Shown: in pieces, positions 29,692 through 35,600 of the stretch
Position numbering within the stretch: the first letter of the stretch is position 1
How the letters are laid out: every line of letters begins with the position of its first letter
Virus record (IMG/VR): IMGVR_UViG_2531839374_000006
From: a virus
Lineage: Duplodnaviria > Heunggongvirae > Uroviricota > Caudoviricetes
Length of the DNA: 47,972 nucleotides
Reading direction: 5' to 3' (one strand)
Program-made: the position numbers

Positions 29692-32600
29692 GCCTGCTGA
29701 GCTAAGTCGGCGCTGGCCCACCACCGAGGACTCGAACCTCGCACCGTCAACTTAGAAGGTTGATGCTCTATCCGGATGAGCTAGTGGTGGTTGGTGGCCC
29801 TTGCTGGACTTGAACCAGCGACCTGGCGATTATGAGTCGCTCGCTCTGACCAACTGAGCTAAAGGGCCGGAGGCAGAATAATAACCATATGTCATCACAT
29901 CTGCAAACTCATCTGACCACCAGCACGTTTAACGTCCTGTGCCGTTTTTCAGGTATAAAAAACCCGCTCAATGGCGGGTTCTGGTAAAGTTCATGCGCTT
30001 GGTTCGCCTCGCGATACAGCTTTGCGAAGCGTAGCTGAATTGAAGCAGTTTATTGGCAAAAATGCAATAACTTTTTTATTGGCTTTCTCCGCATAACGCT
30101 AATTTCATTGGTATATACAGAATGTGTTCAGCAACACCCAACCATGCGTCAATGCGATTTCTGCAAGTTTTCAAGCTCCAGCCAGGGCGATACTTATTTA
30201 ACTGTTGTGCCATTTTCAGCTTACTCATCCCCCGCCCTTTATACCGTTGCCGGAGGACACTAATCAATCCAGGATGCTCTGCCAGCACCTCACTTATGAC
30301 TCGATCAATACATAACGCCTCTGCATCAGTACAATGCGCCAGCCAGGTCTTTTGCTTGCCATTGATCATCTCTCGCAAAAACGCTTCCAGCTCAGGTTTC
30401 TCTATTCCCGCTTTTTTCATCCTGCGCAGGGCTTCATTGACGGCTGTTTTTGTCATTTTTTGGGATGCCAGCAACTGATTGAATATATTTCCCGTCTTAC
30501 CGCCACCAATATACGACCAGCGCCCCCACATGCGCAGTTTTCCCTGAATCCAGACACTTTCCAGCGTGGTGAGACGAAGGTGTTCCCCGCTTTTGCCTGT
30601 ATTTGTTGGGTAAATCATAAATAACCTTCCTTTCTCCAGATTTCTTGTGTGCGAAAAACACCTTCTGCATGCATCAGGCGTAATTCTTCTTTGGTGTAAT
30701 CGCTGGTTTTTACCCGCCCGTCGATTAAATCGTGGCACGAGCTACAGGCAATAGCCGCCTGCATATCGTGTGGCTTTATCGCTGTTCCGCACGCTCCCGC
30801 CAGTCGGTAATGCGCCAGCACAGACGTTTCGGGATTGTGATTGCAGTAGCCAGGAATTCTGACGGTGCACATCTGCCCCCGCGCCGCTTTACGTAAATCC
30901 ACCATTACGCAAACTCCAGTAACTGTGCGGCCACATTTTCGACTTCCTCCGGAGAGGAAAATTTACGGAACAGGATCCAGTTCCACAGCACATTCAGTAC
31001 AGATTTATAAACCTGCTGAAACTCGGTTTCGTCCATGTTCGCAAATGCGATAGATTTTGCCCTGCGCCCACGACTACCATCAGGATAAATATGCTCGGTG
31101 TAAAATCCGGCCTGAATGGTTACCCACTCGCGGAAAGCCTCAAACGACTTTAGCAATGCTGTATCCCGGGTTCTGCGTGTTGCAACTGTATTCAGATATT
31201 GCTCTGCGGCTTCGCTCAGAGCTGGCGTATGTTCCCGACCTACTGATTCGCACAGGTACTCAACGAAGCCTGATACCAGTTCTCGTTCTCGGGGCGTGAT
31301 CGCCCCACCGATCGGAGTCCAGTAATCGAATCCCAGTTGCAGGAGTCTGAAAAAACGCTTGTGGAATGCGTAGTTACGCACACGCTTAAAGTCTGCGTGT
31401 ATCCACTCACCTGTTTTGATTTGATGCAGAAAATCGCAACTCTCCGGCGTCGCCGGGAGAAGTAATCCGGAAGAGGTTTGTTTGACCAGTTGTATATGCG
31501 CCATTTCTCAATCTCTCGATGGCGCAGTGCAGCAGGTGCCAGTTGTTCAGGCTGGCGTGCGAATTGTAAACCAGAATGCCATGAAAAAACAAAACCCGCC
31601 GAAGCGGGTCTGGTTATTGATGAATTAACTTCACGGTTTGGGCTGGAAATTCTTATTCAGCGCTCTGCACTGCTCTTTGTCTTCTTCTTCATGGGCTTTA
31701 AATACAGAATAAGTATCAGGGTCAAAAAACGAGATAGATTCTACTTCCCTCTTGGCTACAAGTATCCGAAAGTCTTCAAGGCTAAGGCCGCCAAGACCTT
31801 CCGCTACAATTCCTTCTGACTGATAATGTCGGCGGTAGTTTGTTGTGATGTTTGTAGTTAACGTACCCTTATCCCGATACCCACTCAACAGCGGAAGAAG
31901 TTCAATATGGGTAAAATCGCCGTTTTCAAAACTTGGGCAGATAACAATTCCAACATAAAATTTTCTGGATGAGAGTGTTATAATGACGGGAAATTGCCTG
32001 ACTGCTGCTTCCATAAGGAAGCTCTCTTCTGGACTTGTGGAAACAATTCTTGCGATAGCATCCAACCTGCGATCCCCTTTCTCTGTTCTTTTTTTGCGCC
32101 GCCAACCGCAAAATGCAGCAAGAGCAACAGATGTCATTCCCCAGACTGCAGATTTAAGATCCTTTATCGAATTTCCTCCATCAAAAGAGATAGGAAAAAC
32201 TCTTTTCAGGGCATCAGGACCAAGATGAAAAAAATGCAGAATACCGTTAATCAACCAGCGGTATACCCCAAGGAAACCAAGGATCGTACAAACAACCCAC
32301 GCAACACAGACAAAAACAGCTCCCCAGGTTGCAACAAAAAAATAAGCGTCCCATCCCACAGAACGCTTATACCTATATCTTGTTTCCAAACAAAGAGTAA
32401 CATAAACATAACCACTAATCAGTATGACAGCGATCAATAGCGTATTCATTCTTACCCTGGCTTTTTGTTTTCCAATGACTCAAGCTTATCCAGCTGTTCT
32501 TTGATAGCCTTTCTGACCTTGTCGTTCTCAAGGTTAACCATGATGAAACCATCGTCGCTTACTTCGAACTTATCCTTGTTTTCTTTAAGAACTTTTGACA

Positions 32601-35600
32601 ACCTGTTCGATGGTGTCTGTATGGTTCCATACCCTCTTATTGCATATGCGAGACTCATTCTTACCTCCCATCTTACCGTTATCACCGTGTAGTGACACTG
32701 TTACATCCATGTATAAATGCTTTGATACTATGGCTATACCATTAAAATAAGTTTACCGGAAGACTTTGATCAACTACTTTTCACACCAGATACACAAATA
32801 ATGTGAAACACAACATAGAAATTGTCAAAACCGCCGGGTGGCGGGTGCGTTGAGGATGCCTGACACATCAGAGGTGGCGGGAGATTACTCCCCCACCTGG
32901 TCTCTTACTCCTCAGGTTCGTAGACTGTGAAGACAGCGACCTCCGTCTGGCCGGTTCGGATTCGTACCTCGCAGAGGTCTTTCCTCGTTACCAGTGCCGT
33001 CACTATGACGGTTAAACAGATGACGATCAGGGCGATTAACATCGCCTTTTGCTGCTTCATAGCCTGCTTCTCCTTGCCTTTCGGCACGTAAGAGGCTAAC
33101 CTACGTTTGTGAAGCATAGATTGGGCCTCAGATTAATGTTAAGCGTCTTGCAGGACGCGTAATGTTAACTGGGGCTTTTCTCTATCTGCCTTTTGGTGTT
33201 CATGCCTGAGGCAGATAGCCTCAAGCACCCATTATGATTTTAACCAAAGTCTTTATATCTATAAAGAGGCACAATATTACTCGATATATCATCATGTGTG
33301 CGCCTTATTCCAAACATTTTGGAAACAAAGCGTTCCCTCACTCCCGACATATCCAGTATCTGCTTCCAAGAAGATATATCCAGCAATTCAACTGCACAGG
33401 AAAGTAAGCGAGGTTTTTCCTCAGGGATTAACTCATCCCCCATCTCTCCTTTAATCGTCCCTCTTTTATTTAGATGGATAAATCCCGTTCTCATTTGTTG
33501 TGGCGTAATCAGCCCCAAAACCGTAGCACGATAAATACACATGCGAAGACTGATTTTCCATCGTTCTTTGAAATTAATTAGTGCATTCCAGTCAAGATGC
33601 GATCCTCGCATTTTAGGAAATTCATTAACGAACGAAACTCTAGGTACAAGGAATGCGCTCGAAAAATAATCCGCATGATGTTCTGTAATTTTATCCCCTG
33701 TTATAATCCCTTCATGCAAAACAAGATGCCCCAGTTCATGACCGAGATCTGAGCGAAATCGACACACACTCTTTTTCGCGGAATTTCTAATTATCAATGG
33801 GCGTTTACTATTAATAGTAAACGCATCAATACGATCATCCACGCCAGATACATGAGCAACAACAACCCCAATACTTTCCACGAAATTAACCATTGAAGAT
33901 ATCGGTCCCAGCCCCAACCCCCAATACCTTCTACAGGCCTCGGCAATTCTTTCAATATCTTCATCGGAGTTCAAAGGTAATCCGGACGTATCAGGAAAGT
34001 TCAATTCTGGAAGAACTATTTCTGTTTCCAAACACTTTACAAACTGCTCCAAAATTTCAGCTCGAGCCAGAATACTATTAGTTAAGGACTGCGTCCTTGA
34101 TCTCTTGCTTCTGAAATGGCAGTTCTCGCTGTCTAATGGTGATTTCCTTCCAGTGAAGAAAAACGACTCTTTAACATCCAGATAATCTGCAAGAGCTGTC
34201 AACATCTGAGATGAAGGGGGATAACCACGCTCTAACTTGTTTATAAATTGCCGAGTCACCCCCAAAGCAGTAGCAAGCTCTTCGCCCGTAACCCCTTTAG
34301 CCTGACGAGCTAATTTTAAGCAGTCACCACGATAATTACCTATAGAATCAAATAGTTCCATATTTATCACTATCTGCTTTTTTCGCATTCTTAACACGCC
34401 GCTGCAAATTCAGCGGTGGTGTTTCCACGGCCTCTGGCAATACGTCAGTATTAGCTGCTTGTACTGGAGCATGGACTTTAGACACCAATTCGTATCTACT
34501 CACTACATTATTTGATGAATCAAAACCTATCAGGGCTAAAAGCCACGTTGGAGGTTCGATATCTTCATCTTTTTTATTTGCAGATGGTAATTTTTCAGCC
34601 AGAACACGCCATGTAACATCATGTTCAAAATTAACATCATCTTCAAAAAGAGATAACTGACGACACTCAACATCATTTTTACATAAGCGATGTTTCTTTT
34701 TTGGTGAATCCAGTTTATCGGTCACAAACTGTAACGGCACCCTGTTCAGGGTAAACACAAAATTCAGAGGTGTTGAAAGAATCGCCACTCCTTTGAGTTT
34801 TTTATGATTTTTTACAAGAAAGTTTTTTATCCATCCATAGGCCCTACATCCATTAATCCAGTTATCATCATACTCATGGCGATGGAACCATAATTCGCCA
34901 AGTACGTTAGCAAATTGCTGAAGAAGATTGATAACAGATTTTTCATCCAAACAAGGATTGATTTCAAAACACGGTTGGAGATTCTGTTCAGACGGCATAA
35001 GGTATCCCTCTCTCTTAAAACTCCGCTCATCTTTACGCAAAATTTTATTTTTGTAAACCTAATCTTTGGGGTATTTCACGAATTCGTCAACCAGTTGAAC
35101 GAACTTTAACCACAATACATATTTATCTACATTGATATGAGTATCGCTAACACTATTGTGGGCATTCAGCTAAATAGCTGCGCTTAATACCGCTACACTT
35201 TTGCCAGTCCATGTTTGCCTCCGGGGAATGGGCTGACGGTTTCCATAAAATGGCGAACTTTTTTCAACAGTTGCCACATTGAGCGGCACTGATGATTACG
35301 CGTTATTGTGTCGTGAAGTGCCTGCCATAGCCGTTCAACATGATTCACCCATGGCGAGTAAACCGGCTGATAAATGCCCCTGAACTTCGGGTTCTCCTTC
35401 AGCCAGCTCTGTGTTTCCCGGCTTTTGTGGATAATGTAGTTGTCCACGATCAGCGTGATGGTTTTCGCCCGACGGTATGTCGCTTTAAGCCGCTTCAGCA
35501 GGCTGATGAACAGCGCCGAACTTTTGCTGTTGCCGCCCACATAGCTGACTTTACCTGTCCCGCTGTGCAGCGCTCCGGCCAGATAATATTTTTCATTCTG

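Follow-up and report, generated by a model that had tools for sequence, protein, structure and literature searches.

The stretch of DNA analysed here, called the window throughout, is the 47,972-nucleotide IMG/VR virus record IMGVR_UViG_2531839374_000006, an E. coli lambdoid prophage in which two genes of the minus strand lie between hok and the nin region, beside the RosmerTA genes. We refer to the first gene and its 68-residue product as A (32452..32658, minus; ATG at 32658, stop at 32452) and to the second gene and its 272-residue product, a predicted inner-membrane protein, as B (31631..32449, minus). A lies upstream of B at a spacing of 2 nt, and its start codon follows a GGGAGG Shine-Dalgarno sequence by 6 nt. 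An earlier inspection of the DNA alone (the sequence-only reading) had described an AT-rich small gene followed 2 nt later by a gene for a membrane protein, and had suggested an exclusion or abortive-infection pair. Both open reading frames (ORFs) and the gap between them are indeed present where it placed them, but on the minus strand, and the guanine-cytosine (GC) content agrees with its description: the pair has 42.0%, the window 50.0% and the adjacent nin genes 49-52%.

The A protein is hydrophilic, with an isoelectric point of 9.0, and its predicted layout consists of a disordered N-terminus, a helix (residues 16-26), a beta-hairpin (31-41) and a second helix (46-64). Upstream of A, direct sequence reading of the 5' non-coding leader (32659..32840, minus) identified, besides the Shine-Dalgarno sequence, a weak terminator-like hairpin at the hok junction (CCGCC-ACCC-GGCGG+TTTT, 32844-32827) and a perfect TTGACA (32828-32823) accompanied by a weak -10 element. 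A 7-nt inverted repeat (32779-32808) was considered as an operator, and no claim is made for it because such a repeat is expected at about chance level. An Rfam scan found no RNA family within the cassette. On the plus strand, a 148-residue ORF (31994-32440) runs antisense to B and most likely arises as a side effect of the low-GC coding strand.

The extent of the cassette is given by comparison with lambdoid phages that lack it. In phage Evi, the equivalent of window positions 31529-31609 lies only 5 nt from the equivalent of 32841-33231, the hok block. Since the two flanks are 5 nt apart in Evi, the whole cassette (31610..32840, minus) is a 1,231-bp insertion relative to that phage. Both flanking blocks are also kept in E. 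coli strain 503025 (L100), where a different cargo, an IS1203 transposase and a 130-residue hypothetical gene, lies between them. Downstream of B, the operon ends in an intrinsic terminator (31582..31611, minus) made of an 8-bp, GC-rich stem (31611-31592) with a TTCG loop followed by TGTTTTTT; terminator-like sites are frequent in this region (six against 1.4 expected). The same terminator follows hok directly in Evi and in ~1,465 E. coli genomes without the pair. It is therefore a shared or backbone element at the edge of the insertion, so that the terminator that had been attributed to the pair as its own does end the operon, but is shared with the phage backbone. In other phage backbones, each homologous cassette brings a strong Shine-Dalgarno sequence and its own downstream intrinsic terminator.

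Two further observations concern these edges. Both insertion junctions (31592-31611 and 32827-32844) fall inside similar GC-rich terminator hairpins of the ACCCGC..GCGGGTTTT type, and near-identical AACCCGCTTCGGCGGGTTTT terminators close the cassettes of Aeromonas and other phages. Terminator hairpins may thus serve as recombination points for cassette exchange.

A moron, in the sense of Juhala and Hendrix as summarised in PMC3594210, is extra DNA of deviant composition with its own promoter and terminator, which allow expression from the repressed prophage. The segment described here is absent from the same site in relatives (Evi and the ~1,465 genomes) and deviates in base composition from its surroundings. 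These two observations support the view that the locus is a prophage moron, a mobile two-gene operon. As to expression signals, its terminator is shared with the backbone and the promoter in the leader is a candidate.

The B protein begins with a membrane module (residues 1-116; 32102..32449, minus), which we delineated from hydropathy, charge and the helices of a structure model. Its predicted parts are a first transmembrane (TM) helix (TM1, 1-23), a basic cytoplasmic loop with four lysine or arginine residues (21-33), TM2 (34-60), a predicted periplasmic loop (61-97) and TM3 (98-116). Hydropathy is strong over residues 1-23 and 34-60 and weaker over ~98-116, where the best 19-residue Kyte-Doolittle mean is ~0.8 and the segment is followed by RRKKRTEK. 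Of the three N-terminal hydrophobic helices proposed by the sequence-only reading, two are thus strong, the third is weaker and three TM helices are plausible from the sequence; the ~150-residue C-terminal part that it described is present. Following the positive-inside rule, the predicted orientation is N-out/C-in, and we infer from the same rule that these ~150 residues are cytoplasmic.

The AlphaFold2 model of B, built from a 32-sequence alignment, has a mean predicted local distance difference test score of 80.5 and a predicted template modelling score of 0.63. It places helices at residues 2-19, 21-29, 33-60, 62-73, 78-84 and 94-123 (TM3 with its basic extension), together with two linker helices, and strands at 154-159, 163-169, 181-192, 199-204, 229-232 and 236-241, before an acidic C-terminal helix. 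Within this model, residues ~140-243 (31721..32032, minus) show the N-terminal helix and five bent strands that define the Sm fold, with an insert at 206-228. We are therefore confident that, as modelled, B carries a domain of the Sm/LSm/Hfq type of fold, predicted to be cytoplasmic. Of the checks suggested by the sequence-only reading, the remote-homology search gave no family at the level of sequence, and structure prediction gave an Sm-like fold.

An alignment of 45 diverse family members shows where B is constrained. Invariant positions are G13 and, within the Sm-like domain, Y165, G167, P186, S189, G190, R192 and Y205, and nearly invariant ones are K163, Y191, Y209 and F242. Conservation is highest in the Sm-like core, the cytoplasmic loop and TM1-2, and lowest in the predicted periplasmic loop 61-97, where the frequency of the majority residue is 0.42, compared with 0.75-0.78 in the cytoplasmic parts.

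Searches of known families returned little for either protein. B has no match in Pfam, NCBIfam, PADLOC-DB v2.0.0 or the PDB sequences, and A has no meaningful match in Pfam, NCBIfam, PADLOC or PDB, where its hits are at chance level: in PADLOC only Cas2, with an expectation value (E) of 0.003 over 39 residues, and in the PDB sequence search matches such as TrmBL2 (E 0.012). This supports the statement in the sequence-only reading that neither protein resembles a known lambdoid function. A match to a structural or lysis accessory family, which that reading had named as refuting its proposal, was also sought, and neither protein has one in Pfam or PHROGs. In PHROGs, B is assigned to phrog_3630 (E 6e-92) and A to phrog_9843 (E 4e-31), both of unknown function. 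Among sequenced phages, tblastn with B found only Salmonella SEN4/SEN5, Klebsiella ST15-OXA48phi14.1 and two Pseudomonas phages (24% identity), and all of these homologues are annotated as hypothetical. A literature search covering the accessions, DUF6338 and the combination of Sm-like, anti-phage and transmembrane found no paper describing the pair.

Some existing names of homologues look misleading. NCBI and UniRef list many 55-75-residue A homologues (P0065, P0067, P0075-P0079 and others) as "multidrug ABC transporter ATPase", and a single B homologue is called "DUF2207 domain-containing". The ABC name was rejected, as no ABC profile matches these proteins, and both names look like propagated errors when judged against profile searches.

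The nearest likenesses are to parts of B. Compared with Sm, LSm and Hfq proteins, B is membrane-anchored by prediction, carries 23 extra residues ahead of the last strands and lacks the Sm1/Sm2 signature. The Sm-like, ligand-sensing domains of the WYL type, found in defence regulators (PMC4012209, PMC9122588), resemble B less than true Sm proteins do; unlike them, B has no WYL motif or helix-turn-helix (HTH), and its domain sits on a membrane module rather than in a transcription factor. For the membrane module, the N-terminal part of distant family members aligns to about positions 7-112 of the 205-position Pfam profile DUF6338 (unknown function). Only one of them (P0233) passes its gathering cut-off (30.8 against 26.5 bits), over the membrane half only, and B of the window does not match DUF6338. 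This link adds no mechanism. As modelled, the parts of B are an Sm-like barrel, comparable to those of Sm/Hfq proteins, WYL sensors and the MscS beta domain, and a DUF6338-like membrane anchor. As far as sequence comparison can tell, the pair is outside every named family tested.

We next consider how the two genes are inherited. A set of ~90 loci was assembled from the window, E. coli genomes, NCBI and Logan contigs, and 80 IMG/VR contigs. In this set, an A homologue lies directly upstream of every intact B, at spacings of -38 to +14 nt, mostly -4, -1 or +3. The only exceptions are two loci with frameshifted B copies and one contig that is truncated. The pairwise identities of the A proteins correlate with those of the B proteins at r = 0.95, a value reached by none of 999 Mantel permutations. 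This correlation shows that A and B are inherited as a unit, with no exchange of partners, and their co-divergence is to be read, at the level of sequence, as linkage and not as contact. Distant B members (22-30% identity) likewise have a 56-74-residue ORF just upstream with the same "G-x-hairpin, then helix" signature. These partners include proteins of 63 residues (L091, E 2e-7), 56 residues (L098), 72 residues (L096) and 64 residues (L113), while the small upstream ORF of L092, L093 and L010 was recognised by eye only.

The family defined in this manner is large. A word-indexed search for B homologues yielded 56 clusters, from Enterobacterales and Aeromonas, and a full hidden Markov model search yielded 2,822 clusters at 50% identity with E <= 1e-3 (1,883 with E <= 1e-10), nearly all full-length, at 230-300 residues. 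A profile scan of genome contigs for the distant subfamilies gave four usable loci. Together with the Sm-like fold, this family size and the strict A-B pairing are the points that go beyond the sequence-only reading.

The pairing bears directly on one alternative, in which a membrane toxin B and a labile antidote A would form an addiction or stabilisation module that maintains the prophage or island, with no anti-phage role. The layout has the features of a type II toxin-antitoxin (TA) system, with a small gene first, coupled to a larger one by an overlap or, here, a 2-nt gap, and the two strictly co-inherited. Moreover, the pair stands directly beside hok/sok and RosmerTA, and the two frameshifted B loci can be compared for the state of A, which is intact in L074, with none found in L069. 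Against this, neither protein is homologous to TA families in Pfam, NCBIfam or PADLOC, the repeated capture of the pair into defence hotspots of stably integrated phages argues for a benefit beyond maintenance, and many TA modules at such sites prove defensive. Overall, we regard a role in addiction alone as very unlikely.

Distribution and position are informative about a second alternative, an accessory role in the phage's own cycle, such as lysis, injection or assembly. The form of the pair found in the window occurs in 10 of 5,426 complete E. coli genomes, and the P2-type form in 52 of the same 5,426. All ten carriers have the two genes annotated as "hypothetical protein", all have them after hok, with varying cargo upstream, and one of them is an Stx1d prophage; in the four lambdoid loci examined, the pair is always immediately downstream of hok. 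A phage-cycle function could be argued from the location of the pair inside the tail operon of some prophages, and from the co-transcription with early-right genes that is expected in the lambdoid context. Yet the pair is missing from almost every relative of each backbone (10 carriers against ~1,465 E. coli genomes that share the flanking site), occupies different modules in different phages and is also found outside prophages, and, as noted above, structural and lysis families are not matched. A lysis or structural accessory was accordingly rejected on the patchy distribution and varied positions, and we consider any phage-cycle role to be highly improbable. A conflict or defence module is preferred over a phage-cycle gene because of the capture into hotspots, the defence and TA neighbours, the obligate pairing and the patchy distribution.

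The slots themselves recur. About 52 loci lie between the P2 gpA gene and gpQ, the portal gene; their neighbours vary, and the pair is sometimes the only substantial cargo. This interval is a defence hotspot according to Rousset et al. (PMC9122126). In P2, three of eight extra systems proved defensive (PMC9122126), as did six of eight unknown P4 loci (bioRxiv 10.64898/2026.02.27.708500), and these success rates are a reasonable prior for untested cargo of such hotspots. Further loci lie downstream of P2 gpD, and the lambdoid ones are in the hok-nin island. Among the distant members, one (L098, a Chromatiales metagenome-assembled genome, 740-5564) encodes a pair of 56 and 290 residues located 127 nt downstream of co-oriented capH-like (E 3e-7) and capP-like (E 1e-36) genes, with a divergent ThiF-E1 and Prok-E2_E/multiubiquitin operon alongside and an insertion sequence element following. 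In L010, a metagenomic contig, the neighbours include a PbeA-like helicase and an MzaB-like ATPase. Recurrent location in defence hotspots or islands, the pattern used for guilt by association, is thus found for this family.

In siphovirus prophages, the pair is located between the major tail protein gene or a DUF6246 gene and the tape-measure gene, beside other small add-ons. At ~6880-7830 of L076-L083, this slot holds two more add-ons with no Pfam match, a 157-residue gene on the opposite strand and a 119-residue protein with a signal-peptide-like N-terminus. The tape-measure slot is relevant to the main rival of our account, superinfection exclusion, in which B would block genome entry at the inner membrane without killing the cell, either by interfering with the tail tip or tape-measure channel or through capture of the entering nucleic acid by the Sm-like domain. 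The archetypal exclusion moron, gene 15 of HK97, is flanked by the tail chaperone and tape-measure genes (PMC3594210), which makes the position before the tape-measure gene the same slot. B is a predicted inner-membrane protein encoded by prophages, its predicted periplasmic loop 61-97 is hypervariable, which would suit an arms race on the side of entry, and no toxic domain is recognisable in the Pfam and PADLOC scans. Nevertheless, the characterised exclusion proteins gp15 and SieA act singly (PMC3594210), whereas this pair strictly retains a cytoplasmic partner and B is under its strongest constraint in the cytoplasmic domain. In addition, outside Enterobacterales and Aeromonas the family is mostly chromosomal and is absent from IMG/VR, and the variable loop may merely be unconstrained. 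Given this balance, we judge exclusion to be unlikely.

A phage-unrelated form of lysogenic conversion was the remaining alternative. Here, the pair would be a channel or regulator of host physiology, or a membrane tether for RNA or protein, acting for example in ion or osmotic homeostasis, stress tolerance, or the entry of colicins or antibiotics. In MscS, three TM helices (N-out/C-in) precede a cytoplasmic beta domain of Sm-like fold, an order that builds a heptameric channel. B, by prediction, echoes this order. Membership of B in the MscS family was rejected, since there is no MS_channel profile match and MscS is not a top structural match; no other transporter in Pfam is matched either. 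On the genomic side, a role in host physiology could be read from the distant L091, a lone chromosomal islet among housekeeping genes, next to an H-NS gene, and from the non-defence cargo of the P2 hotspot discussed below. An obligate small partner and a patchy, hotspot-bound distribution fit conflict systems better, and we therefore see conversion of this kind as quite unlikely.

Altogether, these results suggest that the pair probably serves some anti-phage role, a view drawn from its genomic context. Our favoured form of this account is more tentative, at a little short of even: a moron that encodes an inner-membrane anti-phage module, with abortive infection as the favoured detail. The abortive-infection version takes up about half of the probability that we assign to an anti-phage role. 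The closest precedents for such a mode of action are found among prophage membrane modules. RexA and RexB of lambda form a two-gene abortive-infection module in which RexB has four TM helices. The pair described here shares with RexAB the lambdoid prophage, the combination of a soluble and a polytopic inner-membrane protein, and potentially the logic of a soluble controller and a membrane effector. It differs from RexAB in showing no homology (Pfam, PADLOC, PHROG annotation), in that RexA is far larger than A and RexB has no Sm-like domain, and in its prophage location. The HK97 gp15 moron (PMC3594210) is similar in being a prophage add-on of deviant GC content with an inner-membrane product (in the pair, by prediction) and the tape-measure slot, and its own expression signals have as counterparts in the window a candidate promoter and a terminator shared with the backbone; it is dissimilar in having no sequence relation to the pair and in consisting of a single small YebO-like protein instead of two genes. 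By analogy, the mode of action may be closest to that of these two modules.

Specifically, we propose that temperate phages carry the two-gene operon for the benefit of the lysogen. In this proposal, B would be anchored by its three helices, with the Sm-like beta-barrel exposed to the cytoplasm, and, in analogy with Sm and Hfq rings, would assemble into a hexameric or heptameric ring with 18-21 TM helices bundled together. A would be made in fixed proportion through translational coupling, and would act as the obligate partner that binds and controls B, holding the assembly closed or inactive before infection. Infection would then either remove or titrate A, or supply a ligand to the Sm-like domain, and the freed B would compromise the membrane before the invading phage finishes its cycle. 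We infer the oligomerisation of B, its binding by A, any ligand binding and any effect on phage. Within the anti-phage account, TA-like abortive infection is preferred because the small gene precedes and is coupled to the large one, because A is too small to sense much, and because the cytoplasmic parts are the most constrained.

Several observations weigh against this account and limit how firmly we hold it. At the level of the protein, B contains no Sm1/Sm2 motifs and no match to the Pfam LSM or Hfq profiles; an hhalign comparison with E. coli Hfq gives a probability of 0.4%, and the best PDB profile match is YaeO, with an E of 0.09. Because a sequence-level relation is absent, we call the domain Sm-like rather than a member of the Sm family. 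There is also no recognisable pore-forming, enzymatic or nucleic-acid-binding motif in B. When the 45 diverse members were compared with PADLOC-DB v2, only single matches with E of ~5e-4 to 7e-4 were returned, none of them meaningful. At the level of the operon, a promoter scan of the leader found no site reaching 9/12. At the level of genomic context, the P2 hotspot also holds partition systems and the cytolethal distending toxin (PMC9122126), so that the slot alone is no proof, and the defence-island contexts of distant members amount to only two anecdotes, those of L098 and L010. Finally, scans of IMG/VR viral contigs did not find the distant subfamilies. The phage-borne lineage is therefore a single clade within a family that is mainly chromosomal and, taken as a whole, not specific to phages. 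The exclusion or abortive-infection pair proposed by the sequence-only reading is thus supported in part, by the mobile moron and its accessory and defence hotspots, and is weakened by the lack of a PADLOC model match and by the non-defence cargo of the P2 hotspot.

A bolder version of the anti-phage account is that the family constitutes a new class of immune system, built as an Sm-fold ring on a helix bundle, Proteobacteria-wide and comprising ~2,800 clusters at 50% identity. In such a system, the ring would sense infection at the inner membrane through a cue that is a nucleic acid or a nucleotide, or A (60-75 residues) would keep the ring shut, and the ring would subsequently gate a pore or block genome entry. 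We consider this version doubtful.

The surroundings of the pair in the window show how the prophage is organised. In minus-strand order, the genes begin with a CI-like repressor, a YdaT-like gene, an O-like gene, a DnaB-type helicase, DUF1627 and DUF977, continue with an IS630-type transposase, RmrT, RmrA, hok/sok and the A-B pair, and proceed 3' of the pair with DUF1367, YbcO, a Q-like antiterminator, four tRNAs and the lysis genes. RosmerTA is directly upstream of hok (33240-35040, minus; GC 37-42%). RmrA, with an HTH and an M78 peptidase domain (385 residues by ORF call), is matched in PADLOC with an E of 6e-107, and RmrT (230 residues) with an E of 2e-18; the ORFs as called share 50 nt, and therefore one of the starts is probably later. 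The hok/sok type I TA system (32905-33230, minus) is identified by the Hok/Gef Pfam family (E 6e-22) and the Rfam sok model (120 bits). In the Stx1d prophage of E. coli JNEC-KY180 (L001, 11064-12699), genes named "beta family protein" and "sce7726 family protein" are found at the RosmerTA position. Because L001 differs from the window there, the cargo upstream of hok has been swapped, with hok and the pair retained. The IS630-type transposase (DDE_3 with HTH_23/32; 35193-36224, minus), flanked by DUF977 and RmrT, borders the low-GC accessory island and may mark how the island was assembled.

Farther from the pair, the four tRNA genes (29558-29868, minus) between the Q-like and lysis genes are called Gly-tcc, Thr-tgt, Arg-tct and a CAT-anticodon tRNA designated Met; a related prophage annotates the first of these as tRNA-Val and the last as tRNA-Ile. 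Rfam also identifies isrK (60 bits) and the C4 antisense RNA (77 bits) next to each other (42124-42312, plus), at the start of the ORF 42073-42924, which is the layout of an anti-repressor control region of the P1/P7 type. The RalA small RNA (Rfam, 204 bits; 46989-47167, minus), which serves as antitoxin in the RalR/RalA type I system, is a further TA element of the window.

The present work supplies a definition of the family, a set of invariant and nearly invariant residues for mutagenesis (K163, Y165, S189, R192 and Y205) and a correction of the misannotation of A. Irrespective of function, the cassette is a test case for the movement of morons, since it is found in the lambdoid hok-nin island, the cos-proximal hotspot of P2 and a slot in the tail operon. 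Some carriers are Shiga-toxin (Stx1d) prophages, and this cargo may affect the range of phages able to superinfect pathogenic E. coli. If the pair protects its host, it would be a compact (~1.2 kb) and very widespread addition to bacterial immunity, and its membrane-anchored Sm-like domain and tiny obligate partner would be parts not seen in immunity before. If the family were in fact a new class, B would be the first membrane-embedded Sm-ring effector, with a mechanism unlike that of any named defence system.

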